DNA from: Ignavibacteriota bacterium
Lineage (GTDB): Bacteria > Bacteroidota > Ignavibacteria > UBA10030 > CAVZMI01
NCBI GenBank assembly: GCA_963835935.1
Contig: CAWIHK010000005.1
Coordinates: forward strand, 459,166-523,165
Reading direction: 5' to 3'
DNA length: 64,000 bases
Shown: positions 2,539 to 38,758 of the stretch, piece after piece
Layout of the letters: each line of letters starts with the position of its first letter
How positions within the stretch are numbered: the stretch's first letter is position 1
The notes under the pieces: generated by a model
What the model was told of the DNA's origin: nothing
What the model saw: only the letters and a program-made list of their open reading frames with translations
The model's database searches: none
Translations under genes and position numbers: made by a program

Positions 2539-2558
2539 ACATACAAGGAGAAATACTC

Positions 2559-5221: not shown

Positions 5222-5605
5222 ATGCTCAAGGATTTGATCTCGTTGCTTGACAAATATGAAACTGAACTCCGATCCCTCCGGGTACAGACCTTTTTCCATC
5301 GGCAATCTGAAGAACACTACGAAAACTTTCTTGCCTATCGTGAAGAATTGTGTATTTTAAAAAATAGACTATCAAAAATAGATACCGGAATATCTACGGC
5401 AAAATTTAATCGTCTTCTCTTACAATTAAAAAGCAAAATCGACATAGCGCAGCAAAGCCTTTCCGTTCTTCACAACTCATCGCGTATAATCCAGGATCTT
5501 GCTTCCGTCCTCGACTTTCTTTCTCGTCTGGTAACGTTGAGTAAATCGATTCCTGAAGTTATCGAGAAAAATTCGGACTCGAATTCGAATTACACAATTG
5601 ATTGA
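5222..5605 (+). CDS. Hypothetical small alpha-helical protein.
   Basis: ATG-initiated 127-aa ORF in an otherwise empty intergenic stretch, followed by a weak hairpin plus T-run (5645-5670). No recognisable motifs. Confidence 0.3.
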   Translation: MLKDLISLLDKYETELRSLRVQTFFHRQSEEHYENFLAYREELCILKNRLSKIDTGISTAKFNRLLLQLKSKIDIAQQSLSVLHNSSRIIQDLASVLDFLSRLVTLSKSIPEVIEKNSDSNSNYTID

Positions 5606-5724
5606 ACTCTAAGAAGTAAATCTTTGTTCTAATATTTTAAATGCAGGATTTATGCACAATCCTTTTCTATCAGAGTGCATCGAATTGGTAGAAATAAATA
5701 GCAACAATAAAATGAGGAATTGAT

Positions 5725-6072
5725 ATGAGTAAAAACATAGTCGCGGCAACGGACGAAAATTTTCAGAAGGAAGTTTTAGAATCTCCCATTCCAGTGATGG
5801 TCGATTTTTGGGCTCCCTGGTGTGGTCCGTGCCGTATGGTCAGCCCGGTTGTGGAAGAATTAGCCGATAATTATGCAGGCAAAATAAAAATTGCAAAGCT
5901 CAACACCGATGAAAACCAAACAACGGCTTACCGGTACGGTATTCGCAGTATCCCCACATTAATGTTTTTCCAAGGCGGACAAGTCGTTGACGCTATTATC
6001 GGTGCAGTCCCGAAAAAAACGTTACAGGCAAAGATCGAAGGATATTTAAAAACAAAAACGGTTTTAAATTAA
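5725..6072 (+). CDS. trxA: Thioredoxin.
   Basis: WCGPC active-site motif ([14 protein letters not shown]) with a typical ~110-aa thioredoxin length. RBS GAGGAA upstream. Confidence 0.9.
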
Positions 6073-6142
6073 AAATTTTAGAAAGCAAGGATGTCGATAG
6101 ATCGTCGTTGTAGGATATGGAAATGAAAATAATTTCTTACTT

Positions 6143-8680
6143 TTATTCTTCATCGTGATCAACTTTAAATACTGTTGTTGCACCCTGGAGTTCGGTGGCA
6201 ATATTTACAAGGCTTGAAATGACATTACCGACTTCAGAAGTTTGAGAATGTACAACCTCTGTGATCTTTGAAACTTGCTCGGTGGTAGCCGAATTTTCAT
6301 GGCTGATTGCAGCAAGGTTATCTATTGTATCCAATGTATGTTCAACATTCGTTGTCACTTCTTGAGTATTCGTCAGGTTATTTTGTATCACGGTAGAGAC
6401 TTGATCGACCGCTTCTTTCAAATCATTCATCGCTGGAATAATGGATGAATTAGCTTTTACCATTTCGTCAATTGGCTCCTGAAGAGAAGCTTCGGTTGTA
6501 AAAAGCTGATCCAACGCAGAACCGGACCGAGAAACCAATTCGCTTCCTTCCTGAACACGTTTTATGGTTACTTCCATCGAGTCAACCATACTGTTAATGT
6601 TATTTTGAACTGCCTTGATGATATTTGCGATTTCTCTAGTTGCCGTTTCAGATTTTTCAGCAAGCTTGCGAACTTCGTCGGCTACGACAGCAAAGCCTCT
6701 GCCGTGTTCTCCCGCACGTGAAGCTTCGATAGAAGCGTTGAGGGCAAGAAGATTGGTCAGTGACGCAATATCTTTTATTTTTATAACAATCTCTCCAACT
6801 TGCTGTGAGTACGACGCCATCTGTTTAATAGTCGCAGACGATTCACCCACGGTTGTCTGAATGTTTTCCATATGCTGCAGAGTTTGTTTGATTGTTTCGG
6901 CTCCGTGTTCCGCAACCTCCCTTGATTTCATCACTGCATCGGCAACGTATTGTATTGATTTCGAAGTTGTTCCGATCGCATGAGAAATATTTTCAGCGGC
7001 CGTCGAAACACTCTTTGTTGCGCGCGTTTGATTGTTCGAACCTTTCACAATATCGTCGATGGAATGGGCAATATTATGGACTGTCGTATTTGTATTTTCT
7101 ACGGCAAATGCTTCGTCATTTGCAGTTTTAGCGAGTTCTTGTGCCGCACAGGCAATTTGTTCCGTCGAATCTGTAGTTTGTTTTGCTATCGCCTCTAATT
7201 CCTGGCTCACATTATTCAAAGCTTTAGCGCGCAAAGAAATATTTACGATGAGGCTTCGAAGGCTTGTAGGTTCACTGTTGTATGTGGCAACCGATATTCC
7301 ATCGGCAATTATTCTGTTGATGAAGGGAATAAGCTGATCCTCGAAAATCATTGTTGAAATTGCATGATAACCTTCCTCGACTAAATCTTTAATTATATTT
7401 TGCTGTATTTTAAGTTCTTCCGATTTATTCTCGAATAGAGGAACAATCCATTCCGCACTGCCGTTATACTGGCGCAATTTCTCATTAGCCATTTCGACAC
7501 CTCTTTTTACCGGATCCCAAAACTTACTATCCGCTCTGCCAATGACTGCAATTCTAATTGGGCGCTGAGATTGCTTAAGAGGTTTGGGCCGGTTCGCCAT
7601 CATCGAGTCTGTTTCGATCAATCCTTTTTCCGGACACCAGAAATCTTTGTAATTCTCTTTTGTAACCATAACCATTGATGTCAGGAGACGCGGCGAAGCA
7701 GGAATCCAGCCTGCTACAAGATGATTAAATAGATGTATGACGGGGTCATATCCCTGAGCAAATGCGTCCTGATTTATTGTCGCTGTTATAATTCCTTTTT
7801 CAAGATATTTCATAGTTTCGTCTGAAAGATCGTGAGTAATGATTTTCACGCGTCCTGTCGCCCCAGCCTCAAGCACTCCCAAAGCGGCACCTGCAGGACC
7901 TCCTCCTTCGGCAACATAAATTCCTGCAAGAGCCGGATGTTTTTTAAAAAAATTCAGCGCCATCAACCGAGTTTTTTCAGGTTCATTGAGATTTTCTCCA
8001 AAATCCACAATTCGGACATCGGGAAATTTTTCGTGTAGTAAACTTTCGAAACCTTTACGACGTAATTGCATATTTAGGAAGGCGGCATTCCCCACAATCA
8101 CAGCGACCTCGCCTTTCCCATTTAAAGCTTTTCCCATCGCCTCGCCGCATTTTCTCCCTTCAACGTACGAATCAGCTCCGACATAGAAAAGTCGGTTGCA
8201 CGGTTCGCTTGTCACCGTATTAAAATCAATCGCGCTTTCACGTAAATTCGTTTTGATGGAATTGAATACGTCACCTAATTTATTCACTTCAGTCGATGCA
8301 GTAATTTTCACCGTTTGTGAATTGATCACCAAACGTTTTGTTAAATTACCATTAGCCAAAGCTGCTAAAGCATCTGAAAAATCTTTAATATCTTTTGAAG
8401 CAAGTTTTTCGCTCTCTTCAATTATTTGATTCAATGGTTTTATTATTGTATTTCGTATCAAAAAAAATATTAAAACAATGAGAACTGCAGTGCCGCACAA
8501 TCCCCAGGATAAATATTTTTGAGCTTTGCTTATTGAATCGACAGCTTCAGAAATATCGTTTACTTTGGTGAGCTGAAAATATCCATAGCTGGCAAAAACA
8601 AGAGAAAAAAGAGTTATTATTAAAGAAATATAAAGACTATGCTGCTCTATTTTTTTTAGCCACTTTCCAAACATATTCAC
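6143..8680 (-). CDS. Methyl-accepting chemotaxis protein. It has two TM helices with a very short (~20 aa) extracytoplasmic loop, a HAMP domain, a cytoplasmic bilobed periplasmic-binding-protein type I (sugar/LacI-like) sensor domain of about 330 aa, and a C-terminal MCP signalling domain.
   Basis: The C-terminal block LLALNASIEASRAGEHGRGFAVVADEVRKLAEKS is the highly conserved MCP signalling motif. The internal region (VAVIVGNAAF..., IAVIGRADSKFWDPVKRG...) resembles PBP1/LacI-type ligand-binding folds. The N terminus carries two hydrophobic helices. Confidence 0.75.
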   Translation of the reverse strand: MNMFGKWLKKIEQHSLYISLIITLFSLVFASYGYFQLTKVNDISEAVDSISKAQKYLSWGLCGTAVLIVLIFFLIRNTIIKPLNQIIEESEKLASKDIKDFSDALAALANGNLTKRLVINSQTVKITASTEVNKLGDVFNSIKTNLRESAIDFNTVTSEPCNRLFYVGADSYVEGRKCGEAMGKALNGKGEVAVIVGNAAFLNMQLRRKGFESLLHEKFPDVRIVDFGENLNEPEKTRLMALNFFKKHPALAGIYVAEGGGPAGAALGVLEAGATGRVKIITHDLSDETMKYLEKGIITATINQDAFAQGYDPVIHLFNHLVAGWIPASPRLLTSMVMVTKENYKDFWCPEKGLIETDSMMANRPKPLKQSQRPIRIAVIGRADSKFWDPVKRGVEMANEKLRQYNGSAEWIVPLFENKSEELKIQQNIIKDLVEEGYHAISTMIFEDQLIPFINRIIADGISVATYNSEPTSLRSLIVNISLRAKALNNVSQELEAIAKQTTDSTEQIACAAQELAKTANDEAFAVENTNTTVHNIAHSIDDIVKGSNNQTRATKSVSTAAENISHAIGTTSKSIQYVADAVMKSREVAEHGAETIKQTLQHMENIQTTVGESSATIKQMASYSQQVGEIVIKIKDIASLTNLLALNASIEASRAGEHGRGFAVVADEVRKLAEKSETATREIANIIKAVQNNINSMVDSMEVTIKRVQEGSELVSRSGSALDQLFTTEASLQEPIDEMVKANSSIIPAMNDLKEAVDQVSTVIQNNLTNTQEVTTNVEHTLDTIDNLAAISHENSATTEQVSKITEVVHSQTSEVGNVISSLVNIATELQGATTVFKVDHDEE

Positions 8681-8837
8681 ATCCTACTTATTTCTTGTGC
8701 GGTGAAAATAAACATCCTCAACACACGAAAAACCCTCCAAAAATTATTTTCGACATCCAAGTATAAAAACTTAAGAATCATTTAAAAAGAGACAGCAAAA
8801 TAATTTGCCAGATCTAAATGTGCGGAAAATAATATTT

Positions 8838-8866
8838 TGGGGGAAAGTGGGGATAAGTTCGGGAAC
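8838..8866 (+). promoter_or_regulatory. Distal array of three 10-11-bp-phased TGGG-type direct repeats (TGGGGGAAAG TGGGGATAAG TTCGGGAAC). Candidate MraZ box array.
   Basis: TGGGG at 8838 and 8848, and CGGG at 8860, are spaced one helical turn apart. This matches the known MraZ operator architecture (direct TGGGN repeats). Confidence 0.4.
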
Positions 8867-8975
8867 TATTCTAAAAACCCTCATTTTTCTGAATCACATA
8901 AAATCCTTTAAATACAGGCTTTTTTGTATTTTTCCCTTGACTTTCATGCGTAAAGCATTAAATTTCGAAGCAAGA

Positions 8976-9005
8976 GTGGGTAAAAGTGGGTAAACGGGGG
9001 AATGA
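8976..9005 (+). promoter_or_regulatory. Proximal array of three 10-bp-phased repeats GTGGGTAAAA GTGGGTAAAC GGGGGAATGA, ending about 33 nt upstream of the mraZ start. Candidate MraZ autoregulatory operator within the dcw promoter.
   Basis: Two perfect GTGGGTAAA units plus a third degenerate unit at exact 10-bp spacing immediately upstream of mraZ (9038). Confidence 0.5.
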
Positions 9006-9037
9006 GATTCTAAGAGGGTTTATTTAAAAGGAATGAC

Positions 9038-9487
9038 ATGTCATCTTTTAAAGGTCGGTTCAATTATTCTGTAGACAATAAGGGAAGAATAAATATTCCC
9101 GCAAAACTTCGGAAAAATATTTCACCCGAAGCAAATGATACGTTTGTAATAACGCGAGGATTTGAACAATGTTTGTTCATCTACCCTCTCGATGAATGGA
9201 ATAAATTGGAAAACTCCATTCGTGGTCTGTCACCCTCGAATTCCCAACATAGGTTTTTTGTTCGTACTCTCCTCCAATGGGCTACTGAATCTCAGCTAGA
9301 TGCGCAATTTCGAATTTCGATTCCACAAGAACTTATACAATTTGCTGAAATTGATAGTGAAGTTATCATCATCGGTGTCTTAGAACGAATTGAAGTGTGG
9401 AAGCCGGCTCGCTACGAGGCATACATGAGTAATCAGGCAGCATCTTACGAAACTGTAGCTGAATCCGTTTTTGGATCTAAGGAATAA
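9038..9487 (+). CDS. mraZ: Transcriptional regulator MraZ.
   Basis: Begins MSSFKGRFNYSVDNKGRINIPAKLRK with duplicated MraZ-type halves. It is the first gene of the dcw cluster. Confidence 0.9.
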   Translation: MSSFKGRFNYSVDNKGRINIPAKLRKNISPEANDTFVITRGFEQCLFIYPLDEWNKLENSIRGLSPSNSQHRFFVRTLLQWATESQLDAQFRISIPQELIQFAEIDSEVIIIGVLERIEVWKPARYEAYMSNQAASYETVAESVFGSKE

Positions 9488-13170: not shown

Positions 13171-14676
13171 ATGAATCTCAGCCTTCTTTTGGAGGGAGTT
13201 CCAGTTGCAAAAGTATTCCAAACTGTTTTCGGACAGATGGTGCAAACGCACGATGTTCACGTCAGCCATATCGTCTATGATTCTCGGAAGGTCGATGTTG
13301 GCGACTTATTTGTTGCAATCCGCGGATCCGAAGTAGATGGACATCTTTTTATCAAAGATGCCATCGATAAAGGCGCAAAGGTCGTCGTCCTGGAAGATGA
13401 TTCGGCGCTTCCCGATTCGTATTTCATGCATACGGGTGTGGTGAAGATCGTCACGTCGAATGCGCGGAAAACTTTGGCGTTAATGAGTAGAAATTTCTAT
13501 GGAAACCCGCAATCAAAATTGCGGCTGATCGGGGTCACGGGAACGAATGGAAAAACAACGACCACGCATCTGATTAAATCGATCCTGGAAGAAAGTGGAG
13601 AGAAAGTGGGATTGATCGGAACGATCGCTTACGTGATTGGAAACAAGGAAATTCCCGCAACACATACGACACCGGAATCACTGGAGTTGAATCAGTTGCT
13701 GGCAGAAATGCTTTCAGAAGGATGCACATCGGTTGTGATGGAAGTTTCGTCACACTCGCTGGTTCTTGATCGTGTTTACGGATTCGAATTCGACGCGGCG
13801 GTTTTTACAAATTTAACGCAGGACCATCTCGATTTTCATAAGACCATGGATGAATATGCAAAAGCAAAAAAAATATTATTCGATTCATTATCAGATCAAG
13901 CGTTCGCTGTTGTCAATGCCGACGATGAATGGAGCGAAAAAATTATCACATCTACAAAATCTCCGGTGATGCTTTATGCAATCAGTAAACCGGCAAAACT
14001 TCAGGCCGTCGATATCGTTCTCGGATTTGATCAGACGACCTACACAATTAAAACAACAGAAAAATCGGTCAATATCACTTCGCCATTAATTGGACGTTTT
14101 AATATTTACAACACGCTGGCGGCGTATGGTGTTTGCTCCGGTTGCGGAATTTCGGATGCTGTAATTCTTCGCGGCCTGCAAAAGCAAGAAAATGTTCGCG
14201 GCCGTTTTGAACGTATCCGTTCGCAAAAAGGATGGACGGCTGTTGTAGATTATGCTCACACACCCGACGCGCTTGATAAATGCCTCAGGGCAATTCATGA
14301 TATATTCCCTGAAAATCGTTCCGGAAAAATAATAACCGTGTTCGGTGCCGGCGGTGATCGCGACAGAACCAAACGAAAAAAAATGGGCTCGATCACGGCA
14401 GAACTGAGCGATGTTGTTATAGTCACATCCGATAATCCGCGCACCGAAGATCCCGAAAAAATTATCGATGATATTATGGAAGGAATTCCGGCAGCCGCTC
14501 ATTGCATTCGTGAAACTAACCGGCATAAAGCGATTGAGATGGCGTTAACGATGGCTAAGTCCGGCGATGTTGTTATACTTGCCGGTAAGGGTCATGAGAA
14601 TTATCAAGTGATTGGAAAACAAAAACATCATTTCGACGATAGAGAGGAAGTTCAGAATTTTATTAACCGTACGTGA
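13171..14676 (+). CDS. murE: UDP-N-acetylmuramoyl-L-alanyl-D-glutamate--2,6-diaminopimelate ligase MurE.
   Basis: GTNGKTTT P-loop and a DNPR motif (meso-DAP specificity). ATG 13171 follows the ftsI stop. Confidence 0.9.
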   Translation: MNLSLLLEGVPVAKVFQTVFGQMVQTHDVHVSHIVYDSRKVDVGDLFVAIRGSEVDGHLFIKDAIDKGAKVVVLEDDSALPDSYFMHTGVVKIVTSNARKTLALMSRNFYGNPQSKLRLIGVTGTNGKTTTTHLIKSILEESGEKVGLIGTIAYVIGNKEIPATHTTPESLELNQLLAEMLSEGCTSVVMEVSSHSLVLDRVYGFEFDAAVFTNLTQDHLDFHKTMDEYAKAKKILFDSLSDQAFAVVNADDEWSEKIITSTKSPVMLYAISKPAKLQAVDIVLGFDQTTYTIKTTEKSVNITSPLIGRFNIYNTLAAYGVCSGCGISDAVILRGLQKQENVRGRFERIRSQKGWTAVVDYAHTPDALDKCLRAIHDIFPENRSGKIITVFGAGGDRDRTKRKKMGSITAELSDVVIVTSDNPRTEDPEKIIDDIMEGIPAAAHCIRETNRHKAIEMALTMAKSGDVVILAGKGHENYQVIGKQKHHFDDREEVQNFINRT

Positions 14677-16051
14677 CATACTTTCGATTCCCCATCGGGC
14701 ATTTCATAACCGGAGAAGTTCCGGTCTGTTTCGCGGAGTGTCGACCGATTCGCGTGCGATCGAAAACGGAAATCTGTTCATCGCGTTACGGGGTGAAAAA
14801 TTCGACGGACATGCTTTCATTGAAGCCGCGTTGAAAGCAGGCGCCGCAGGTGTGGTTGTCGATGAACAAGGATTCAATGAATATTGCAGTAAGCTCACGG
14901 TTCCGACGCTTGTTGTCCGTGATACGACAAAATATTTCCAACAATTAGCGCGTTTGTACCGGCAGAAGTTTTCTCTTCCAATCGTTGCGGTAGCTGGAAG
15001 CAATGGTAAAACAACAACAAAAGATATGATCGCTGCAGTCCTTAAAAAAAGATATTCGGTATTGAAGACCGAAGGAAATTTTAATAACCACATTGGAGTG
15101 CCGCAAACGCTTTTCCGGCTGAACCGGTCTCATGATATCGCCATCGTTGAAATGGGAACGAATCATTCCGGCGAACTTGAAACGCTGGCGGAAATCGTTA
15201 ACCCGACACATGCAGTTATCACATCGATCGGACGCGAACATCTGGAATTTTTCCACGATCTCGATGGAGTCGCAGCCGAAGAAGGTGCCGTATTTTCAGG
15301 TGGAAACTTAACCAAAAATAGATTCGGATTTGTAAATATTGATGATTACCGCATTCGTGCGCAAGCTTCAAAACTCAGCCGGAAATTAAAGTATGGATTT
15401 AATTCTTCGTGTGCCGATGTGTGCGGTAAAATTATCGAAACTGATTCTCGCGGTTGCGCCGTATTCCAATTTACAACACGACGAATGGTGCAGCCGCTGA
15501 CTGTGCGATTACAGGCTCCGGGAATTCATAACGCCGCAAATGGGTTGACTGCTGCTGCAATTGGTATTTCATTTGGAATCCCGAAGAAACTTGTTGTTCA
15601 AGCTTTAGAAGAATTTTCCGCAAGTTCAAAACGTACTGAAATAATTCAAGCAGGAAAAGCTACGATTCTGAACGATACATACAATTCCAATCCGGACTCA
15701 GTCATTGCGGCGTTGAAGACAATGTACAGCATCGCTACTTCAGGGAAAAAAATAATCGCTCTCGGCGATATGCTCGAGCTCGGTTCGCACGCCGAACATG
15801 AACATGCAAAAATCGGAGTTGAAGTCGCGGATCTCGGATTCGAATTTTTATTCACGTACGGGCCGCTTTCACAATTTACTTATGAAGCTTCGAAACTGGC
15901 GTTCTCGAAACATTTTAAAAACAAAACAGAGTTAATCGATGAACTTTGTTCGATTGTTGAACCGGGAGATGCCGTGTTAATTAAAGGTTCTCGCGGAATG
16001 AAGATGGAAGAAGTAACAACGAAACTCGTTGAATATCTAAAACAACGGTGA
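14612..16051 (+). CDS. murF: UDP-MurNAc-pentapeptide synthetase MurF. The start is uncertain: ATG 14612 overlaps murE by 65 nt, and the true start may lie further downstream near 14650-14700.
   Basis: GVSTDSR, GSNGKTTTK and the C-terminal Mur ligase domain. Confidence 0.85.
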   Translation: MENKNIISTIERKFRILLTVRDILSIPHRAFHNRRSSGLFRGVSTDSRAIENGNLFIALRGEKFDGHAFIEAALKAGAAGVVVDEQGFNEYCSKLTVPTLVVRDTTKYFQQLARLYRQKFSLPIVAVAGSNGKTTTKDMIAAVLKKRYSVLKTEGNFNNHIGVPQTLFRLNRSHDIAIVEMGTNHSGELETLAEIVNPTHAVITSIGREHLEFFHDLDGVAAEEGAVFSGGNLTKNRFGFVNIDDYRIRAQASKLSRKLKYGFNSSCADVCGKIIETDSRGCAVFQFTTRRMVQPLTVRLQAPGIHNAANGLTAAAIGISFGIPKKLVVQALEEFSASSKRTEIIQAGKATILNDTYNSNPDSVIAALKTMYSIATSGKKIIALGDMLELGSHAEHEHAKIGVEVADLGFEFLFTYGPLSQFTYEASKLAFSKHFKNKTELIDELCSIVEPGDAVLIKGSRGMKMEEVTTKLVEYLKQR

Positions 16052-16055
16052 TACG

Positions 16056-17171
16056 ATGCTTTATTATTTTTTTAATTTGATTGAAAAATTATATGCACCG
16101 CCGGGATTCAGTCTTTTCCGGTATATAACATTTCGTGCGGCAGCGGCTGCTATCACAGCTTTGTTAATTTCTTTTATCGCAGGCCCAAAAATAATTGCTC
16201 TTCTTAAAAAACACCAGATCGGGGAAGCGGCAAAAACGGAAGCCCCGAAAAGCCATTTGAGCAAAGCGGGTACTCCGACAATGGGAGGGCTCATTGTTCT
16301 TCTCTCAGTTTTAGTTCCGACTATCCTATGGGCTGATCTAAGAAATATGTACGTTCTACTTATTGTTCTCGTCACCTCCGGGCTTGGCGTGGTAGGATTT
16401 CTGGATGATTATCTTAAAGTGGTCAAGAAAAAAAGAAAAGGCCTTATCGGCATTTATAAAATAATCGGACAGGTAACGATCGGAACGATTGTCGGCGCCG
16501 TGCTATATTTTTCTCCGGAACTGAAATCGGCTGCGGCAAATACGATTACGACAGTTCCATTTTTTAAAAATCTGGAATTCAACTTCGGAATATTTTATAT
16601 CCCGATGGTGATTTTTGTTATCACATACACTTCAAACGCTGTGAATCTTACGGATGGGCTCGATGGCCTTGCGATCGGGACTGTCGGCATCGTCGCTCTC
16701 ACATTGGCGGTCGTCGCTTACATCAGCGGCAATATCGAGTTCAGCAGGTACCTGAATATAATTTATCTGCGTGGTAACGGCGAATTGACAATTTACTGTT
16801 CAGCGTTGGTCGGAGCCGCGCTCGGTTTTTTATGGTACAACGCTTATCCCGCACAAGTTTTTATGGGAGATACAGGTTCGCTTGCGCTTGGCGGTGCGGT
16901 TGGTGCGATATGCATTATGATAAAAAAAGAATTCCTGCTGCCCGTTCTTGGCGGAATCTTTTTAGCGGAGACGATGTCGGTCATCATTCAAAAAATTTAT
17001 TTCAAATACACAAAACGAAAATACGGCGAAGGCCGCCGGGTTTTCCGGATGGCTCCAATCCACCACCATTTTGAAATGTTGGGATGGAGTGAACCGAAAA
17101 TTGTCATGAGATTTTATATCATTGCGATCATGCTCATGATTTTAAGTCTCGCCACATTCAAGGTACGTTAA
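16056..17171 (+). CDS. mraY: Phospho-N-acetylmuramoyl-pentapeptide transferase MraY.
   Basis: Polytopic membrane protein with the conserved DD/NxxD and HHH (APIHHHFE) motifs. Confidence 0.9.
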   Translation: MLYYFFNLIEKLYAPPGFSLFRYITFRAAAAAITALLISFIAGPKIIALLKKHQIGEAAKTEAPKSHLSKAGTPTMGGLIVLLSVLVPTILWADLRNMYVLLIVLVTSGLGVVGFLDDYLKVVKKKRKGLIGIYKIIGQVTIGTIVGAVLYFSPELKSAAANTITTVPFFKNLEFNFGIFYIPMVIFVITYTSNAVNLTDGLDGLAIGTVGIVALTLAVVAYISGNIEFSRYLNIIYLRGNGELTIYCSALVGAALGFLWYNAYPAQVFMGDTGSLALGGAVGAICIMIKKEFLLPVLGGIFLAETMSVIIQKIYFKYTKRKYGEGRRVFRMAPIHHHFEMLGWSEPKIVMRFYIIAIMLMILSLATFKVR

Positions 17172-18539
17172 TGCAAGCTGACGATATCAAAAAATATTCT
17201 TACGCAGTCATCGGTGCAAAGGAAAGCGGTTTAGCCGTGGCGTTGTTGCTGCAATCGCTTGGAGCAGTTGTGTTCGTTAGTGATACAAGTCAGGAAGAAA
17301 ATATTCAGGCTGAGATATTCTGTTCTGTCGCGTCAGGAAATACCGTTTGAAACCGGCAATAATTCTGAAAAAATACTTGAGTACGATATTATAATCGTCA
17401 GTCCTGGTGTTCCACTCAAGGCGGCAGTAATTCAAAAAGCTCGGTCAATGAAAAAGAAAATTTTGGGTGAAATCGAGGTTGCAAGCTGGATATGTAAAGG
17501 GCCCATCGTTGCTATTTCCGGCAGTAACGGAAAAACAACCACGACCACTCTCACCGGACGAATGTTCTACGATGCGCGAGTGCAACATTTCGTAGCTGGA
17601 AATATCGGGAAGGCATTTTCTTCGTGTGTGAGTGAGAGTAATGAAGAGACCACTTCAATTTTGGAGATCAGTAGTTTTCAACTCGACACCATCGACACAT
17701 TCCATCCAAAAATTGCAGTGTTGTTAAACATAACTCCGGATCATCTCGACCGGTACGATCACAAATTTGAAAACTACATTGCTTCGAAAAGCCGCATTTT
17801 CATGAATCAGACGATGGAAGATGTTCTTATTTATTGTGACGATGATCCGGTCACAAAAGAAATCGTGGAAACGAAAGCAATCAACAAAGTCCGACTTTTG
17901 CCATTCAGCATACTGCATGAAGTCGGTGAGGGAGCTTTTGTTTCTGCGAACAATATGATCGTAAGGATAGGAGAAAAGGATTACAACATCATCCCCATAG
18001 AGCAAATCTCCGTCAAAGGGGATCATAACATTTATAACGCGATGGCGGCAACGCTTGTATCCATGGTTTGTAAGATTTCGCAAGCGTCCATACGTGCAAC
18101 ATTGAAAAATTTTAAAGGGGTTGAACATCGCCTGGAATTTGTACGTGACCTTGACGGCATCCGCTATATCAACGATTCAAAAGCGACCAATGTCGACGCT
18201 GTCTGGTATGCGCTTCGCAGTTTCAATGAACCTCTGGTAGTACTTTTAGGCGGGCGCGACAAGGGAAACGATTATCGCCGATTATTCGAACCGGTCCGGG
18301 AGCATGTTCGAGCAATTATCGCTATCGGAGAATCGTCAGAAAAAGTTGCGGATAATTTCAAAGGGTATGTGCCGGTTGAAAAAGCAGATACAATGGAACA
18401 TGCCGTAAATATCGCCCGGACGCAAGCGAAACCGGGTGATGTCGTACTGCTTTCTCCCGCTTGTGCGTCATTCGATTGGTTCAACAATTATGAACACCGC
18501 GGCCGTGTGTTTAAAGACATTGTCCTCAGATTAAAGTGA
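17171..18539 (+). CDS. murD: UDP-N-acetylmuramoylalanine--D-glutamate ligase MurD, apparently split by a +1 frameshift. The N-terminal Rossmann segment (17171-17350, frame 2, 59 aa) terminates at TGA 17348-17350. The rest reads in frame 0 from 17235. The junction is near 17315-17330.
   Basis: Frame 2 reads MQADDIKKYSYAVIGAKESGLAVALLLQSLGAVVFVSDTSQEENIQAEI..., which is the MurD N-terminal dinucleotide-binding fold. Frame 0 continues ...SRQEIPFETGNNSEKILEYDIIIVSPGVPL...GSNGKTTTT... to the end. Frame 0 has a stop at 17232. Confidence 0.8.
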
Positions 18540-25196: not shown

Positions 25197-26363
25197 GTGA
25201 TCGAATTAGCAACCACATTTGACCGCGGAGCGAAAATCCGCGTTGTTGGTGTTGGTGGTGGCGGTGGTAATGCCATCAATGGGATGATCGACAAAGGGTT
25301 GGTCGGCGTCGAGTTCATCGCGATTAATACCGATGCCCAGGCCCTTGAGCGGAACAAGGCGCAGAACAAAATTCAGATCGGGAAAAATCTGACGCGCGGA
25401 CTCGGCGCCGGCGCCGATCCCACAATCGGCCATCGCGCTGTGGAAGAGGATCGCGAAGAAATCGCTCGTATGCTTACAGGCAGCGATATGGTTTTTATTA
25501 CGGCCGGCATGGGCGGTGGCACAGGAACAGGCGGCGCACCGTTAGTGGCAAATATCGCCAAGAGCGTCGGCGCGCTTGTGGTCAGCATTGTAACAAAACC
25601 ATTTAACTGCGAAGGAAAAAAACGGCTTCAGCAAGCCGATGTAGGATTGGAAGATTTGAAGAAACAGGTTGACACATTGATCATCATCCCGAATCAAAAA
25701 TTATTGTCAATCGTCGAACGCACAACTCCGATCAACGAAGCTTTCGCGATAGCCGATCAGGTGTTGTATAATGCAACGCGTGGAATTTCGGAATTGATTA
25801 CTGTCCCCGGTTTGATCAACGTCGATTTCGCCGACGTCCGCACCATCATGCGTGAGATGGGTGATGCGTTGATGGGAACCGGCGTCGCGACCGGTGAACA
25901 CCGCGCAACCGAAGCGGCGAATAACGCTATTTCGAGTCCGCTTCTGGATGGCGTTTCCATCGTCGGTGCACAAGGTGTGCTGGTGAATGTGATGGGTGGA
26001 TTAAACATGTCGCTGGCCGAACTCGATGAAGCCACCATGATTATTCACGACGCCGCCGGTGATGATGCGAATGTTATCCTCGGCGCTGTGATCGATGAAA
26101 ATCTAACCGACGAAATCATGGTGACCGTAATTGCAACTGGATTCAACAAAAAGGCCGCGCTTGCCCGTCCGGTGAGAACCGGCTCAAAAGTGCTCGACCG
26201 CATTCCGAACGGTCTGCAGGATTTACAAAGACTCGATGAGCCGACGTACATCCGGAAAGGAATTCCGCTTTCAAATGCGTACAGCATTACCGAAGTGGTA
26301 AACCAAAAGATCGACAAAGCCGATCCGGAAAAGCCGGCATTTTTGCGCAAGATCATGGATTAA
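25197..26363 (+). CDS. ftsZ: Cell division GTPase FtsZ (GTG start).
   Basis: [11 protein letters not shown] tubulin signature. AAAGGAG RBS 7 nt upstream of GTG 25197. Confidence 0.95.
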
Positions 26364-26487
26364 TGGAGTTTTAAAAATGTAATTATTACAAGAAGGTTAT
26401 ATTTGTTCTAATTAATAAATAATCATTTATGCTTGCAAATGAATGTAAGTTTTATTAAAATTATTTTTTTGACTAAGGAGAATAATA

Positions 26488-27015
26488 ATGGATGATATGG
26501 GATCGAAAACTAAATTATTCGAGATTAGTTCAAAATTGCAGAATGCTTCTATTTGGTTAAAAAAAATTGCAAAAAATGAACAACTCGATGCTAAAGGGAC
26601 AGATATTCTTTACTGGGCTGGTCAATTTCTTTGCGAAGTGGATTGGTCATCTAAAATTGCTGCGAAGCCAAGTGTATCTGGATGTTTGACAGTTCAAGCA
26701 ACCTCAGTTCGTCCAACTTTTTATTCATCTTTGATTCGTATCGCGCCAAAATTACAAGCTGAAGGGATGAAAACAGAAACAGATATTTTAAAATTTGTTC
26801 GTGTAATATATTCTTTTTTGTTATCTGTGAAATCGTCTACAAACGATACAAAAAAACCCTTGCCAAGAGAATGCGATCTCGCGGCTATGTTTCTATCAGA
26901 GATTTCAGATTCAATTCTGATTCAACTTAATAATAATGGACTACCTCGTAATTCGGTATCTCTTAAAAATGAATGGGAATTGAATCGAAATGGATATATT
27001 GAGCATACAGTCTGA
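26488..27015 (+). CDS. Hypothetical protein (175 aa). First gene of the AT-rich three-gene operon.
   Basis: ATG with AAGGAG RBS. No recognisable motif. Its 3' end overlaps the next gene by 26 nt. Confidence 0.5.
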   Translation: MDDMGSKTKLFEISSKLQNASIWLKKIAKNEQLDAKGTDILYWAGQFLCEVDWSSKIAAKPSVSGCLTVQATSVRPTFYSSLIRIAPKLQAEGMKTETDILKFVRVIYSFLLSVKSSTNDTKKPLPRECDLAAMFLSEISDSILIQLNNNGLPRNSVSLKNEWELNRNGYIEHTV

Positions 27016-28420
27016 TGTTGATGGATTAAAAGAGGAAGTTCAGAGGAGAGAGCTGCATCGTTTTGCATTATCAATTCATTGGCTGGCACAAAAAATTCAA
27101 ATAGTAGAAGATTTTACATCGGCTACACCTTGTAAACTTGCTCGTCTCATATCTGAAACCGCCAAACTCGTTGCACAAAATTTACACGCTGCTCCGATTG
27201 AAAATTTGACATTATTGAATGACTTTCTCACGTGGATTGCATCCCACCTTCGTTTTGTCGATCGAGCACGAATAACACAAACTCCGTGGAGTATTATTCC
27301 TATAGCTGAATCCTTTTTGAAGGAACAGATAGGACCGGCAAGCAACTTCATAATTAGACCGACCTGGTCATACAACTATTCAATCATTGGCGAGTTTTGG
27401 GATAATTATTCCAATATGCTTAAAGATTTCTCTTGGTTTCCATTGGAAGAATTAAAGGAAAAGGTTGGATTAAATAATGAGACCATTTATTGCATTTCAT
27501 TTCCACGAGTTGAACGTAATAATAGTCTCATGCATGTTAATTGGGGCCATGAAGTAGGTCATATTCTTGCTGATAGATGGGAAAGAAGTGATTTTGATGA
27601 TATGTGGCAGAGTGTGCAACCTCAAATACAATTAAAAATAGAAACAAATGTCAGAACTGACCCTTCCCCATTTCTACCTTTATTTCAGGAATTTGCTATT
27701 AAAAAATTTGTTTCAAGTTCAATGCAACAGATCAAAGATACCACAATTGGTGGTATAAAAGAACTTGTTTGTGATATTATTGGTGTGCATCTTTTTGGTC
27801 CTGCAGCGATTGCAGCAGCTTTTGAGTTTTCTTCACGTCTTAATTTTGATGTTTCACCTCTGCAATGTCCATATTATCCTCCTTGGCGATATCGATTGAG
27901 AAAAATGATTCAATATTGTAAAAAAGATATCGACTCTAATCTTAACAATTCACTCGATTCATTTACCGATTGGCTGTGCAAAGTTGAAAAACTCACGGAA
28001 AGTCAAGAAGATATTGAGACTCTTAATTCTTCCATTATCACTGAAGAAGCTTATAATTTTATCGCTATAAATTATAATCATATTATAAAGAAGGTAATTT
28101 CATATTTGCCCCAGACGTCACAAATACAATATAATTTTCATGGAAGATTTGAAATAATAGAGAAATTAATACATAGATTAAATCAGAAGATTCCACCTAA
28201 TGAAGTGAGTAATCTAAGTGACAACCCAGCCTCATTTCAGGATATTATATCTGCAGCATGGACTTACAAAATAGCAAATGAATATGGACATACGACTGAC
28301 AAGTCAGAAGAAAAAACTATTGAAGATTTGAATGTCCTTTATAATCTGATTTTAAAAGCTTGCGAGAGCAGCTATGTTCATAGAACATTTGGTCCAGCAT
28401 TGCGTGGTGAGAATAAATGA
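26990..28420 (+). CDS. Hypothetical 476-aa protein with an HExxH motif (WGHEVGHIL). Possible zinc metallopeptidase-like protein.
   Basis: HEVGH at about residue 190, with an acidic/hydrophobic segment (IKELVCDIIGVHLFGPAA) downstream. No P-loop. Translationally coupled to the flanking genes by ATGA overlaps. Confidence 0.5.
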   Translation: MDILSIQSDVDGLKEEVQRRELHRFALSIHWLAQKIQIVEDFTSATPCKLARLISETAKLVAQNLHAAPIENLTLLNDFLTWIASHLRFVDRARITQTPWSIIPIAESFLKEQIGPASNFIIRPTWSYNYSIIGEFWDNYSNMLKDFSWFPLEELKEKVGLNNETIYCISFPRVERNNSLMHVNWGHEVGHILADRWERSDFDDMWQSVQPQIQLKIETNVRTDPSPFLPLFQEFAIKKFVSSSMQQIKDTTIGGIKELVCDIIGVHLFGPAAIAAAFEFSSRLNFDVSPLQCPYYPPWRYRLRKMIQYCKKDIDSNLNNSLDSFTDWLCKVEKLTESQEDIETLNSSIITEEAYNFIAINYNHIIKKVISYLPQTSQIQYNFHGRFEIIEKLIHRLNQKIPPNEVSNLSDNPASFQDIISAAWTYKIANEYGHTTDKSEEKTIEDLNVLYNLILKACESSYVHRTFGPALRGENK

Positions 28421-29013
28421 GTACTATAACCATAAGATTGATTGAAGAATGTCTTAAAAGAGAGAGCGACCCTTTAATTGTTTCGCCTATACTTTGCCAA
28501 AAACAAATTGGTGAAGCTTCTATTGATGTCCGTTTAGGAAATCAATTCATTGTGTTTAAGGCTCACAGATTTGGAATAGCAGAACCATTCGGAAAAAAGA
28601 TTAGTGATCCGCGAAAAATCCAGGAGCGATATATTTTGAATTATGGAGAGAATTTCGTTTTACATCCGGGTGTCTTAATACTTGGAAGCACTTTTGAGTA
28701 TGTCTCAATTCCTGGTGATCTTGAATGTCAAGTTGAAGGTAGATCATCATGGGCGCGTTTAGGTTTGCAAGTTGTAACAGCGAGTTCTGTTGAACCTGGA
28801 TTCAAAGGTGTTATAACATTGGAGTTATCAAATGTTGGCATCATTCCATTGGCTCTGATGCCTGGAACTCGAATTGCTCAATTGGTCTTTCACGAAGCTA
28901 AACCATCAATCGAGCATCCATATGCTGGTGTTAAAAAATATCGTTATCCTATTGGTCCACAATTCAGTGGATTATTCGATGATCCTGATTGGAATATTTT
29001 TTCTGATCAATAG
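28417..29013 (+). CDS. dcd: dCTP deaminase / dUTPase-superfamily protein (Dcd homolog, 198 aa).
   Basis: Aligns along its full length to canonical Dcd: IDVRLGNQF..F, GRSSWARLGL (Dcd GRSSLARLGL), VEPGFKGVITLELSNVGIIPLALMPGTRIAQLVF, and a C-terminal KKYRYP. Confidence 0.8.
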   Translation: MSTITIRLIEECLKRESDPLIVSPILCQKQIGEASIDVRLGNQFIVFKAHRFGIAEPFGKKISDPRKIQERYILNYGENFVLHPGVLILGSTFEYVSIPGDLECQVEGRSSWARLGLQVVTASSVEPGFKGVITLELSNVGIIPLALMPGTRIAQLVFHEAKPSIEHPYAGVKKYRYPIGPQFSGLFDDPDWNIFSDQ

Positions 29014-29463
29014 AAAATAATTACTCGGCATTCCATAAGGATTAATAAAGTGCCAATCCCTTTTAAAAATGCGTGATTCGCAATTTTACTTCGAATATTT
29101 CAAATCGATATTAATGTTTTTTCAGGATTGTTAAGAAAGCATTACCGGAATAGATTTACTTATTATAATATTACAAATAGCATCGTTTTGTGTTCAATTA
29201 AATATTATTGATTAGCTGGAATAAAATTAAAAACATTCTTGACATTCAAATGATATCTTAATAAGATTGTTTATTATTACTATTTCATTTGATCCCGTTA
29301 TAATTTGATTCAAGCACCATTGTTTTATAGCTACAACAGCATCATCTTTCTATTCAGAAAGGAGTGTTACTAATATATAGACTGGAATTCTAATTGTGTC
29401 AACAAGGATAACAAGTGAATAATAAAATAACTATTTATGAACAAATTATTATAGGAGACAGAT

Positions 29464-29820
29464 ATGAGACGCATTTTTCTTTTGTGCTTGTTGGGTCTAA
29501 TGGTTATTTATTGCGGCTGCCAGATGTCCATGTATACTTTAACAAATAATGAAAGAAAGTATCCTACTACAAGGGCAGAAAATGTCAGAGTGACAACGAA
29601 TGAGAAAATTGAGGGTGAATATACTGAACTCGGTTATGTTTTTGCCGGAGGTGGTTCTGTTCAGGGCAGTATTGCCAACTTGAAAGAGAAAGCTGCGGAT
29701 ATGGGAGGAACAGCTGTGATTAGACTTCAAACAACTGTAATACGCACTTTTATCGTTATTATATTCATTCCAATTCCGGTTGATAATTTTTACAGTCAGG
29801 GTATTGTTGTTAAATCATAA
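29464..29820 (+). CDS. Small lipoprotein (lipobox ...YCGC), DUF1471/BhsA-like.
   Basis: Signal peptide plus Cys. Pattern Y.ELG.V.........A...LKEKAADMGGTAV, paralogous to the next gene. Confidence 0.45.
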   Translation: MRRIFLLCLLGLMVIYCGCQMSMYTLTNNERKYPTTRAENVRVTTNEKIEGEYTELGYVFAGGGSVQGSIANLKEKAADMGGTAVIRLQTTVIRTFIVIIFIPIPVDNFYSQGIVVKS

Positions 29821-29853
29821 TTACGTTTGAGACATCTTTGAAGGAGTCAAATA

Positions 29854-30189
29854 ATGAAAACTATATCAACACAATTATATTTCTTAATAGTAATTATTAT
29901 TGTCATTTTATTGTCAGGCTGTACTGCAAGCATGCATTATATCAATGACGGAGCGAAAATATATCCCGCAATTAATCCCGAGAGTGTCCTGATAGTTTCT
30001 GAAAGAACAATAGAAAATAAAGATTTTGTAGAGATCGGATACGTGGCGATTAATATTACGAATGCGAATAACGGCGATCAGTTGAAGAATGCGATGAAAG
30101 AAGAAGCGGCCTCGATTGGCGCCGATGCAGTCATCGATTTCAGGATTTTTGGATTGACCGCAGGTGGAATCGCTGTGAAGTATAAATAG
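29854..30189 (+). CDS. Small lipoprotein (lipobox LLSGC), paralog of the preceding gene, DUF1471/BhsA-like.
   Basis: Signal peptide plus lipobox. FVEIGYV......A...LKNAMKEEAASIGADAVIDF. Confidence 0.5.
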   Translation: MKTISTQLYFLIVIIIVILLSGCTASMHYINDGAKIYPAINPESVLIVSERTIENKDFVEIGYVAINITNANNGDQLKNAMKEEAASIGADAVIDFRIFGLTAGGIAVKYK

Positions 30190-30261
30190 CGCAAGTTTTC
30201 AACTAGAGACGACCTAAATAATATTTTGGCCATGAGGCCTAATTTTACTATTAAAGAAAAT

Positions 30262-30300
30262 AAAGCATCGTTGCGTAACCGACGGTGCTTTATTTTATCT
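30262..30300 (+). terminator. Rho-independent terminator after the lipoprotein pair.
   Basis: A 9-bp stem (AAAGCATCG / CGGTGCTTT, one G·U pair) with a 12-nt loop, followed by ATTTTATCT. Confidence 0.5.
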
Positions 30301-35322: not shown

Positions 35323-37263
35323 TTATTTTAAGATTACGTTTAGTATTTTTACTTCGTTTGCTTTCAGTGTTAAATTTTTCAGAACCGGCTTGTTTGAATG
35401 GAAATCGAAAATTTTTATCTGTACGTTTTTGAAAGTCATCTTTACTTTTTGCGTTGAAGGTTCATGATTGATAAGAAATAGAATATTTCGATCATGTTTC
35501 CCTGTCATATACCCGACTTCAACAAACGGATTGTCGATTGAAACCTCCGGTTGAATATTCGAATGCAACAGAGCCAGCGAATAAAATTTATAAGCCGGAA
35601 TTTTTTGGAATGCATCATCGGTGCGCGCCATCACCATTTCAACCGGGAACATACAGCTTATTGCATGACCTTTGCCATAATTATTTACGCAAAGCACGGG
35701 TTGTTTATTTTTATCTTTTGCTGCAACTTCAGCGCTTGTGGGTTCAACTTTATAATATGTGTATGTTGATGGAGCCGGCTCCATTCCCTGGAATATTAAT
35801 TTCTCTTTGTGTTTCTCCGATCGATTTTTTTTATTGAGAAATACTTCGAAGACGTTTGGCATTCTTCTGTAATCGAGAAGTTTGAATCCGAAAAGTTTCT
35901 GTAAATAGCCCGGCGCCATACAGTGAATGTATTTATTAAAGGACATAAACACGGTTCCGCCCTGTTCTACGAAGGAAGTAATTCTATCCATCTCTTCGAT
36001 AGTCAGCAAACCGTTTGGAACGAATAATAATTTGTATCGGGACAAATCCTCATCATGCCTGACGAAATTCACAGGAATATTTGCGGCGCGTGCCATCATG
36101 TAGGCGTTCGGATAAATATTGAAGTTCATTGACAACCGATCGTAATAAGCTTTATCGACATAGATGGCAGCTTCCGGTTTTGAGAATGAATATTCTTCAA
36201 GATCGATTGCATTGATTACATTGAGAAAATCTTGAAATTCTTTAGCAGCCGGTTTTAAAGATTTGTCGGATCGAATCAAACCGAATTCTAATTCCTGCTG
36301 TGCGTAATTATTATAAAGTTGCCTGACCTTCGGATCGAAATCGCAGAATGCCCACGGAAGCATGCTATGCGCACCGGCGACGAAGCAAGAATATGATAGA
36401 ATTCTCTGGTAAATTGCCTGGTTCTCTTCCGATATTTGCATCGTACTGTTGCCGAACTCGAAGCACGCAAGCGGTTTATCGTTACGCTGACTAAATTTTA
36501 TAATGTAAGTACCGAAGTACGTATCGCGAAACGAATTGATATTTTCGAGTTTAAACAAATCGTAATTGTACTTGCTGTAGAAATGCGTGCTCACAAAATC
36601 GGATATATCCATAAGCTCTACGATGTCTGCGCCGACTTGCTGAACGATCGCGGCATGATCGGCGCCAAAGGTTATCGGTTGTTCGAAACCAAGTTCCCGG
36701 AATTTTGAAACCAATTTTTTCGCGTATGCAGAAAGAATGTTTCTGTCCGGAACCCCGGCATTATTTTTGGGCGGAAATCCTGCATGCCACCAGGGTTCGT
36801 TGCCGACATCCCACGCGAATATCCGGCCGTCGGTTGAATATCGTTCTGCAAGAATTTCCATGTATTTTGTTATGAACGAAAATGATTTATCGCTTGTGTA
36901 GTAATTTTCCGGTTTCGTCCATTCCGGGCGCAAAGCGTTTGGGTCTTCCTGGAATGAAGCAAGGTGAAAGAAAGTGAGAATTACTTTTAATTTGTTGGCA
37001 TCGCAAAGCGAAATTATTTTTTCCAGGTTCGCAGTGATTATTTTGTTTTCATTTCCATCATTATCGATCAGATCGAATGGCAGGCCGAATCTCACGGCTT
37101 TAAGTTGCATAGAAGCTATGAGTTTGAAATCGTTTTCAATTTCGTTAAAGTCTGGTTCTGTATAGAATTTTATAGAGTGTCCTGTAGAGGCAGGCAAATA
37201 ATTTATTCCCATCAAGAATTGTTTTTTATTGTCGATGATCCGGTAACCGTCTTTAAAATACAT
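35323..37263 (-). CDS. Glycoside hydrolase, GH42-like (clan GH-A TIM barrel plus a beta-galactosidase trimerisation-type middle domain).
   Basis: DVGNEPWW catalytic-region motif (NEP acid/base of clan GH-A). The middle domain YKLLFVPNGLLTIEEMDRITSFVEQGGTVFMSF resembles Glyco_hydro_42M. Confidence 0.5.
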   Translation of the reverse strand: MYFKDGYRIIDNKKQFLMGINYLPASTGHSIKFYTEPDFNEIENDFKLIASMQLKAVRFGLPFDLIDNDGNENKIITANLEKIISLCDANKLKVILTFFHLASFQEDPNALRPEWTKPENYYTSDKSFSFITKYMEILAERYSTDGRIFAWDVGNEPWWHAGFPPKNNAGVPDRNILSAYAKKLVSKFRELGFEQPITFGADHAAIVQQVGADIVELMDISDFVSTHFYSKYNYDLFKLENINSFRDTYFGTYIIKFSQRNDKPLACFEFGNSTMQISEENQAIYQRILSYSCFVAGAHSMLPWAFCDFDPKVRQLYNNYAQQELEFGLIRSDKSLKPAAKEFQDFLNVINAIDLEEYSFSKPEAAIYVDKAYYDRLSMNFNIYPNAYMMARAANIPVNFVRHDEDLSRYKLLFVPNGLLTIEEMDRITSFVEQGGTVFMSFNKYIHCMAPGYLQKLFGFKLLDYRRMPNVFEVFLNKKNRSEKHKEKLIFQGMEPAPSTYTYYKVEPTSAEVAAKDKNKQPVLCVNNYGKGHAISCMFPVEMVMARTDDAFQKIPAYKFYSLALLHSNIQPEVSIDNPFVEVGYMTGKHDRNILFLINHEPSTQKVKMTFKNVQIKIFDFHSNKPVLKNLTLKANEVKILNVILK

Positions 37264-37975
37264 GTTCTATAATTCTTCCTGTTTTGTTGATATTAATATT
37301 TTCGAATAATGCTTTAAAAATACCTCATATTGAGGTAGAATGCAAGGGTTTACTACCAGTAAGAGAGAATGATGAAGAAATAATTATTTTGATTGCCGAT
37401 AAATGTGTTGTAGGTCGAAGTTGTACTTCGATTTTATTCGAATCGATGATTGAAAATAGAAAAATAAGAAATATCACCCTTTACGAGATCGTCTACGAAA
37501 AAGCTCCTTGAATTATCTTCGGCTATCCTGCTTCACATCATTCAATATTTCCATTAATTCGTCCGAGAAAAAAACAATATCTGCAAGTCAATTTTGGTTA
37601 ATATTACTTAATTTCATCAATAATTACAAATGATGATATTATTTTCCTTGCCTTGTAATTTTTATTTTGGTAAATTATGGTCTGTAAGGAAGTCAGTAGT
37701 GGTCAGGAAAAGATTTAATACGAAATTTTGTAGTGCGGTCGTTGAAATGACGTTCTATTTTTATCATAGAGTTTTTAATTGTCGTTCGCTGTTCCTTTCA
37801 CCTTTCCGCATATACATTTTTCCTTTAAGAACGCTTTTTAGAAAAATTCTTTTGTGGTTCTGTCTCATGAAGTTTATGTACCTTGATTCCGATAATATTT
37901 GGAAGATCAGGGTAATTTGAATTGCCAGATTACACTTATAAATGAAAATATAATTTAATAAAGGAGTTTTCTGTA

Positions 37976-38758
37976 ATGCAAATCTTTGTCATTCTTAAAA
38001 TGGTGCCTGATGTTGTGGAAGAACTTGTCATCGGCAAGGATGGTAAATCTCTCGATGAGGAATCCATCCGGTTTAAACTCAGCGAACCTGATGAACATGC
38101 GCTCGAAGAAGCCGTGCTCCTAAAAGAAAAATGCGGCGGTTCGATTACCGCTTTAGCGCTCGACGCGCCGGATGTCAACGATGCACTGTACCTTGCGCTG
38201 GCGAAAGGCGCCAACCAGGCATTCCGGGTCTCCGGCGAGTGTAAAGGCTGGCAAACATCCGTTGTTGCGAATCTTTTCACATCATTCTTGTCTTCACGTT
38301 TCGGCACTCTTACAAATGAAACAATAGTGCTGACAGGATCGCAGGCAATTGACGATGTTGAGGGAGAACTTGGCGCTTGTCTATCTGAGCTGCTGAAGAT
38401 TCCTTATATAAGCGTTGTAACAGGATTGAGTGTAGACGGAGGAGCGAAGTCGGCCACAGTACTTAAGGAATTTTCAGGAGGACTTCGCGGTGAGTTCACA
38501 TTGCCGCTTCCTGCGGTTATTGGAATTCAATCGGCATCGAAGCCCCCCCGCTATGTTCCGGTTGCAAAAGTTAATGCAGCAAAAAAAACTGCTAAAATCG
38601 AATCTGTTTCAATTCCTGCTGCAAATGCACAATCTACTTTGTCGATTCGAAAGATGTTTACTCCGGTAGCTACAGGAAAAGCTGAGATGCTTGAGGGATC
38701 ACCGAAAGATATCTCGGCTCGCTTAATTGAAATAATTACGCAACGTGGAATTTTATAG
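37976..38758 (+). CDS. etfB: Electron transfer flavoprotein beta subunit (EtfB-1).
   Basis: N-terminal MQIFVILKMVPDV... with a typical EtfB fold and length. Precedes etfA. Confidence 0.8.
   Translation: MQIFVILKMVPDVVEELVIGKDGKSLDEESIRFKLSEPDEHALEEAVLLKEKCGGSITALALDAPDVNDALYLALAKGANQAFRVSGECKGWQTSVVANLFTSFLSSRFGTLTNETIVLTGSQAIDDVEGELGACLSELLKIPYISVVTGLSVDGGAKSATVLKEFSGGLRGEFTLPLPAVIGIQSASKPPRYVPVAKVNAAKKTAKIESVSIPAANAQSTLSIRKMFTPVATGKAEMLEGSPKDISARLIEIITQRGIL

Follow-up and report, generated by a model that had tools for sequence, protein, structure and literature searches.

A conserved three-gene cassette couples a predicted dCTP deaminase to a putative new metalloenzyme family and may act in phage defence

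What is a gene for a deoxycytidine triphosphate (dCTP) deaminase doing directly behind the cell-division gene ftsZ, tied to two genes of unfamiliar families? The question is raised by a 64,000-nucleotide stretch of an Ignavibacteriota genome (assembly GCA_963835935.1, contig CAWIHK010000005.1, positions 459,166 to 523,165; hereafter the window), in which the end of a dcw-type ftsA/ftsZ cluster is followed on its 3′ side by an AT-rich islet. The islet opens with three plus-strand genes that we call A (26488–27015, 175 amino acids), B (26990–28420, 476 amino acids, with the HExxH motif in WGHEVGHIL) and C (28417–29013, 198 amino acids, a dCTP deaminase of dUTPase-like fold). A preliminary description of this DNA had proposed them as an undescribed module for defence by deoxynucleotide depletion or by abortive infection, and had offered as its alternative a housekeeping dcd gene that happens to sit beside two orphan open reading frames. 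The coupling of the three frames is exactly as it described, with an overlap of 26 nt between A and B and an ATGA overlap between B and C (context aaATGAgt). We find that A, B and C form one conserved, co-diverging, translationally coupled unit, and we give about even odds to the reading that this unit is a conflict module of three proteins, self-contained and spread by horizontal transfer, that would act against phages or by abortive infection, or else in the manner of a toxin-antitoxin pair.

The unit is seen most directly in its recurrence. We count about 28 distinct loci with related cassettes, drawn from 10 phyla or more. A survey of 185,579 species-representative genomes gave only 23 loci, again over at least 10 phyla, a distribution that is both rare and scattered. 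The order and strand of A-B-C are constant in every locus with enough sequence, and the carriers include Marinimicrobia, Syntrophorhabdales, Planctomycetota, Verrucomicrobiota and Myxococcales. A divergent clade, in which B is about 28% identical, keeps the B-C pair in Aminicenantes, Nitrospirae, Spirochaetes, Acidobacteria and Gammaproteobacteria, and has an open reading frame of 155–195 amino acids (A′) in the position of A. Among 11 gene-called loci the ATGA overlap of B and C recurs in 7 and the overlap of A and B in 5, and the identities of the three proteins to their window copies co-vary, with r = 0.91 for B and C (n = 24) and r = 0.86 for B and A (n = 18). In addition, the proteins are found joined: B is fused to Dcd in one locus (L023, 9908–12061) and in six representatives of 713–737 amino acids, each from a separate cluster at 50% identity (P0286, P0313, P0325, P0331, P0359 and P0360), while P0292 is a fusion of the divergent-clade A′ to B with 598 amino acids. 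Fusions of B to either neighbour argue for a physical complex. The flanking genes, by contrast, vary from locus to locus, except between the close relatives L004 and L033, and defence genes recur among them. The idea of a dcd gene beside two unrelated orphans thus gives way, since A, B and C are conserved together in about 28 patchily distributed loci.

Composition sets the window copy apart from its surroundings. The GC content of the region 26400–30250 is 0.343, compared with 0.418 for the whole window, which makes it the third lowest of 602 sliding windows of equal size, and those with lower values overlap the region itself. At third codon positions the GC content (GC3) is 0.233 in A, 0.256 in B and 0.241 in C, about 4 standard deviations below the 0.412 ± 0.042 of the 39 other genes in the window, so that the islet first noticed by eye is confirmed quantitatively. 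We also observed that GC3 peaks within the window at 0.566 in ftsZ (25197–26363), the last gene before the islet and immediately 5′ of the genes with the lowest values, which renders the composition step at 26364–26488 unusually sharp. In the four nearest FtsZ relatives, which are 73–75% identical, no gene of the islet follows ftsZ. On the strength of its distribution and codon usage, the cassette is best described as accessory and horizontally mobile, and its copy in the window as foreign in composition.

Conservation is strongest in C, which is also the protein with a recognisable family. It scores 141.8 bits against the dCTP deaminase equivalog model TIGR02274 (cut-off 92.8) and 110.3 bits against PF22769 (cut-off 27, E = 1e-31), and DCD is the sole domain found in it, in agreement with the initial recognition of the last gene as a Dcd homologue. 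It contains the motifs IDVRLGN, GRSSWARLGL and PGFKGVITLELSN, is about 40% identical to Escherichia coli Dcd (PDB 1xs1) at similar length, and aligns GRSSWARLG over GRSSLARLG and TLEL over VLEF, which keeps the catalytic Ser, Arg and Glu (S111, R115 and E138 in E. coli). These residues are retained in 27 of 27 aligned members of the C clade, including the most divergent branch at 28% identity, and the C-terminal lid motif of Dcd is kept as well. By these features C is predicted to be a bona fide dCTP deaminase of the dUTPase fold. Members of the clade share a conserved extra C-terminal tail (…KYRxPxGPxFSxxxxDxDW…) that is missing from E. coli Dcd. The clade has more than 120 members or clusters, of which the top 120 are all at least 56% identical to C, and many of them share contigs with matches to B; one member on a long contig that was absent from the list of B matches proved, once inspected, to have A and B upstream too. 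The C clade therefore appears, from these sequences, to be specific to the module.

B had no match in Pfam, NCBIfam, PADLOC v2 or PHROGs, and a profile search against the sequences of the PDB returned noise only; the arrangement as a cassette, unfamiliar from the outset, is likewise recognised by none of these collections. The family is nevertheless large: a word-indexed search returned 147 homologues, while an exhaustive one gave 1508 cluster representatives at E ≤ 1e-3, 771 at E ≤ 1e-10 and 301 at E ≤ 1e-30. All 121 full-length relatives examined have the HExxH motif, and H187, E188 and H191 are invariant in all 42 aligned sequences, as are other polar residues, including those of the Arg-rich YPPWRYRLR at 296–304. 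An AlphaFold model built on the 42-sequence alignment (mean predicted local distance difference test, pLDDT, of 92; predicted template modelling score, pTM, of 0.91) has a three-stranded sheet (118–125, 131–134 and 165–172), a helix at 179–223 that carries H187-E188-x-x-H191, and a following helix at 230–269 that carries the invariant E258 and D262. Helical domains flank this core on both sides, and more than half of the protein consists of such unrelated helical domains. The model thus suggests a mostly novel fold with a gluzincin-like layout in its core, in which E258 or D262 is the putative third zinc ligand.

With no transmembrane segment predicted, B is probably a soluble, cytosolic protein. 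It has no match to the M48 or M78 peptidases in Pfam and no significant Foldseek match, and it differs from the M48 gluzincins Ste24p/ZMPSTE24 and HtpX in being soluble, in lacking a transmembrane chamber and in its mostly unrelated helical domains. Motif conservation and the model together point to a metalloenzyme of a new, unannotated family. We infer its proteolytic chemistry from the core: B is most probably a peptidase, since the combination of a zincin core and an edge strand for substrate binding is characteristic of that class and counts against another kind of metalloenzyme. The most remote relative of B that we observed (locus L028, 2509–4478) is 24% identical, has the motif HELFH and is preceded by an open reading frame of the size of A. 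For A itself there was no match in Pfam, NCBIfam, PADLOC or PHROGs and no helix-turn-helix. In its model (pLDDT 75) five helices pack into a bundle, while a loop at 58–65 and the tail at 154–175 are disordered, and no structural neighbour was informative; invariant motifs are QATSVRPTFYS (70–80) and QLNNNGLP (146–153). A is therefore modelled as a small, soluble, all-helical protein. Structure prediction, which had been proposed for A and B at the start, thus yields a confident model with a gluzincin-like core for B, without a significant fold match, and a helical bundle for A.

How could these three proteins act together? Dcd family enzymes are trimers, and this, together with the capacity of B to be fused to either partner, leads us to expect an A-B-C heteromer with inactive C. 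We speculate that A and B would assemble with the Dcd trimer and hold C silent, and that a cue from infection would be relayed through the metalloprotease activity of B, which would lift the block; the block could be A or else the C-terminal tail peculiar to the C clade. Once unleashed, C would convert dCTP to dUTP, which would pass to dUMP through the host Dut, and the invading replicon would be starved of dCTP while the pool is flooded with dUTP. We infer the role in defence, the direction of control (B and A regulating C), the trigger and the proteolysis by B. Since an unregulated Dcd would harm its host and dCTP deamination is a validated anti-phage activity, the most economical arrangement is one in which C is the presumed effector and A and B are its control layer. 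In its fullest form, this reading would make A-B-C an undescribed, widespread three-component immune system, in which a new zincin family licenses a dUTPase-fold Dcd in a second, independent invention of immunity by dCTP deamination; we put this forward tentatively, at a little less than an even chance.

The genomic neighbourhoods lend this reading some of its weight. If any known defence gene within about 5 genes of the cassette is counted as a defence neighbour, 8 of the roughly 28 distinct loci (about 29%) have one, well above expectation for an ordinary metabolic gene. In a Syntrophorhabdus metagenome-assembled genome (L018), a type I BREX system with PglX (1445 amino acids, E = 0) and BrxL (676 amino acids, 9e-281) lies directly upstream; this BREX locus (136–9039) looks complete and ends about 430 bp 5′ of gene A. 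Elsewhere, a DruE-like helicase and a type IIG restriction-modification system occupy the flanks of the cassette (L011), DruA is found near the locus of the B-C fusion (2.9e-177), and a JGI contig (L031) has an RHS-repeat toxin gene 5′ of the cassette (1–5414) and an MmeI-type restriction-modification system with Mrr 3′ of it (13615–18471), which makes it a mixed toxin and defence island. Four further loci adjoin Bil-like operons encoding Multi_ubiq, Prok-E2_E, JAB and ThiF/E1 proteins (L005, 10102–13774; L032, 12450–16126; L019, 6317–9296; L022, 12089–15777), in four unrelated lineages, in varying orientation and in both cassette clades. This adjacency may be an effect of defence islands or may reflect a functional link, and the proposed immune system may accordingly be tied in function to Bil-type ubiquitin-like operons. 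Regulators of the CapH/CapP type (helix-turn-helix and M78) accompany the Bil-like operons in only 3–4 loci. They stand with those operons or divergent from them, and we have rejected them as default regulators of A-B-C.

Several observations weigh against a defensive module. The adjacency of about 0.29, counted over ±5 genes in a small sample with incomplete annotation, is below the discovery threshold of 0.33 over ±10 genes, a defence score that gives the fraction of homologues near known defence genes (Tal et al.). In 5 or more loci, namely the window and L114–L117, the cassette is a single insertion among housekeeping genes. None of A, B and C has a match in PADLOC (for C, none at E ≤ 0.1), and at L028 the remote relative of B is not followed by a Dcd gene, which may mean that the family has other partners as well or that this copy has decayed. 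In the divergent clade, homology of the small upstream frame to A is not demonstrable (below 6 bits in hmmsearch, 10% probability in hhalign), and we count that frame as a positional analogue only. All known carriers are uncultured. The cassette was not found in PLSDB plasmids, INPHARED phages or IMG/VR contigs, and around its copy in the window there is neither an integrase nor att sites or flanking direct repeats, so that no mobile vehicle was identified; tRNA genes are also lacking from the window. The depletion-defence or abortive-infection module of the preliminary description accordingly keeps its conserved mobile unit and its 8 of about 28 loci beside defence systems, and is weakened by an adjacency below 0.33 and by the many lone copies. 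On balance a defence role for A-B-C would be plausible, with the chances about equally divided.

The explanation that survives best beside this one, although we consider it unlikely, is that A-B-C is a selfish toxin-antitoxin or addiction cassette, in which free C would be toxic through collapse of the dCTP pool, A and/or B would neutralise it, and cells losing the cassette would undergo post-segregational killing. In the window and at L114–L117 the cassette stands alone among housekeeping genes, which fits such a selfish module equally well, and tight translational coupling, sporadic spread across phyla and foreign composition are all in keeping with it. Three components, one of them an enzyme of 476 amino acids whose active site is strictly conserved, nevertheless exceed what a classical toxin-antitoxin system needs; moreover, defence systems adjoin the cassette in 8 loci, and no copy was found among the PLSDB plasmids, although plasmids are where addiction modules thrive. 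Toxin-antitoxin and abortive-infection functions are not mutually exclusive.

Less probable again is an arrangement with the roles reversed, in which the Dcd-like C would be a sensor or decoy for a phage-specific nucleotide, or for a phage protein that targets Dcd or Dut, and B would be the effector protease. Abortive-infection proteases with an HExxH motif, of the Lit type, are established, and Lit cleaves EF-Tu. B would suit such a role: no other component is as large or as widespread (1508 clusters), its HExxH is absolutely conserved, and a relative at L028 lacks Dcd. The conservation of the catalytic residues of C throughout its clade, down to the branch at 28% identity, suggests instead that C works as an enzyme and does more than sense. 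C is also better conserved than A or B.

We attach a somewhat lower probability still, and call it improbable, to a housekeeping dcd that was horizontally replaced and acquired two accessory or regulatory proteins for the homeostasis of pyrimidine deoxynucleotides. That C passes the Dcd equivalog threshold with its catalytic residues and lid motif in place is what this explanation would predict, several loci do lie amid core metabolic genes, and no second Dcd is encoded within the 64 kb of the window. The distribution, the composition and the obligatory coupling to B disfavour it all the same: the cassette is rare and patchy, occupies no fixed genomic position, has foreign codon composition and is missing at this locus from the nearest FtsZ relatives, whereas a canonical Dcd needs no partners, and C belongs to a clade of its own (at least 56% identity within it, compared with about 40% to E. 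coli Dcd) whose examined members all have B adjacent. A pathway for modifying nucleotides or DNA, in which C would supply dUTP and B would be a metallohydrolase with a nucleotide, and not a peptide, as its substrate, with a modified base, uracil-DNA or a cofactor as the product, is very improbable: the Arg-rich YPPWRYRLR and other conserved polar residues of B could bind phosphates, and Dcd homologues are reported to serve phage dU-DNA and hypermodification pathways, but the neighbourhoods show no conserved partner of the glycosylase, transferase, thymidylate-synthase-like or polymerase kind, neither INPHARED nor IMG/VR yielded a copy of the cassette, and the core of B, with its edge strand, is of a type usual in peptidases.

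If the conflict-module reading is preferred, how does A-B-C relate to systems already described? Deamination of dCTP is a proven anti-phage strategy, and the enzyme concerned is a single protein of 576 amino acids that joins a kinase domain at its N-terminus to a zinc-dependent domain of the cytidine-deaminase fold (Tal et al.). C shares with that enzyme the predicted chemistry, dCTP deamination directed against phage replication, and the habit of an accessory, horizontally spread gene that is sometimes found in defence islands. It differs in being a protein of 198 amino acids with the dUTPase fold, without a kinase, with no match in PADLOC and with two obligatory partners. The analogy to published kinase-fused deaminases that was drawn at the outset hence extends to chemistry and stops short of homology, and if C is defensive the resemblance, judged by the two folds, would be convergent. 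Likewise, in the AvcID system the deoxycytidine deaminase AvcD, which acts on dCMP and dCTP, is inactive with its cognate antitoxin and freed on infection, a logic similar to that of toxin-antitoxin systems and to the one that we propose; AvcD has a cytidine-deaminase fold and a P-loop domain and its antitoxin AvcI is a small RNA, whereas the candidate inhibitors in the cassette are proteins, one of them an enzyme. A search of the islet against Rfam returned no match to an AvcI-like RNA antitoxin or to a riboswitch. Compared with the housekeeping Dcd of E. coli (1xs1), C has the same fold family, length and catalytic Ser, Arg and Glu, and stands apart by its separate clade, its extra tail, its coupling or fusion to B, its patchy occurrence and its foreign composition.

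The activation that we propose for B, a protease encoded beside an effector that gates it by cleavage, has parallels in CapP/CapH, ImmA/ImmR, Lit and the protease-activated bacterial gasdermins. Unlike the M78 proteases CapP, ImmA and IrrE, however, B has no M78 match, and A is a helical bundle with no helix-turn-helix; the CapH/CapP pairs that neighbour some cassettes appear to be part of the Bil-like systems. Literature searches found no description of the A-B-C triad, and a recent paper lists ‘a dUTPase’ among predicted defence domains that are unvalidated. A-B-C may work like the nucleotide-depletion systems and is not a member of them.

The remainder of the islet adds features that stand outside the cassette. 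Its flanks are formed by ftsA/ftsZ, a DinB-family gene and panE. In the 124-bp AT-rich spacer between ftsZ and A, a consensus scan placed a promoter-like site on the + strand (TTGCAA-17-TAAAAT, 26433–26461), a consensus match only, as such sites are not above shuffles in this AT-rich DNA, and an AAGGAG ribosome-binding site lies 7 nt 5′ of the start codon of A. The 3′ side of C is a very AT-rich non-coding spacer of 450 bp (29014–29463), in which there is no Rfam match and, in the consensus scan, no terminator-like site. Beyond it, at 29464–30189 on the + strand (GC 0.375 for this stretch) and still within the low-GC islet, are two genes for small lipoproteins of 118 and 111 amino acids, each with a Cys-containing signal-peptide end. 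The two are indeed paralogous, as first noted (29% identity over 80 amino acids, E = 2e-9), but the DUF1471 label that they were given finds no support: their matches are to DUF4156, YbjQ_1 and selenium-binding families, all sub-threshold. No homologue of either lies near A-B-C at any other locus examined, which led us to reject them as part of the module; they belong to the AT-rich islet.

A strong hairpin followed by a U-rich run (30254–30296, + strand; inverted repeat I8, RNA fold −21.8 kcal/mol, z = −4.2) is a plausible intrinsic terminator closing the islet. The clean terminator of the earlier account therefore stands as a hairpin, located 3′ of the lipoproteins and not of C, and it is unflagged by the consensus terminator scan. 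Elsewhere in the window we observed a second low-GC stretch, with GC 0.31 in 37001–38000, which includes a gene-free spacer of about 700 bp (37264–37975) between an open reading frame of 646 amino acids on the − strand (35323–37263) and one of 260 amino acids on the + strand (37976–38758). This spacer holds only short, low-complexity frames.

Annotation pipelines now label C merely as ‘dCTP deaminase’. Although the hosts are uncultured, the cassette consists of three small soluble proteins that are directly synthesisable and hence testable. Nucleotide depletion is an immune strategy common to bacteria and humans, where it is carried out by SAMHD1. If A-B-C is defensive, immunity would have taken over an ordinary Dcd of pyrimidine biosynthesis as an effector, in an event independent of the deaminases with the cytidine-deaminase fold, a large unannotated metalloenzyme family would gain a function, and protease-gated control would be added to nucleotide-depletion immunity.

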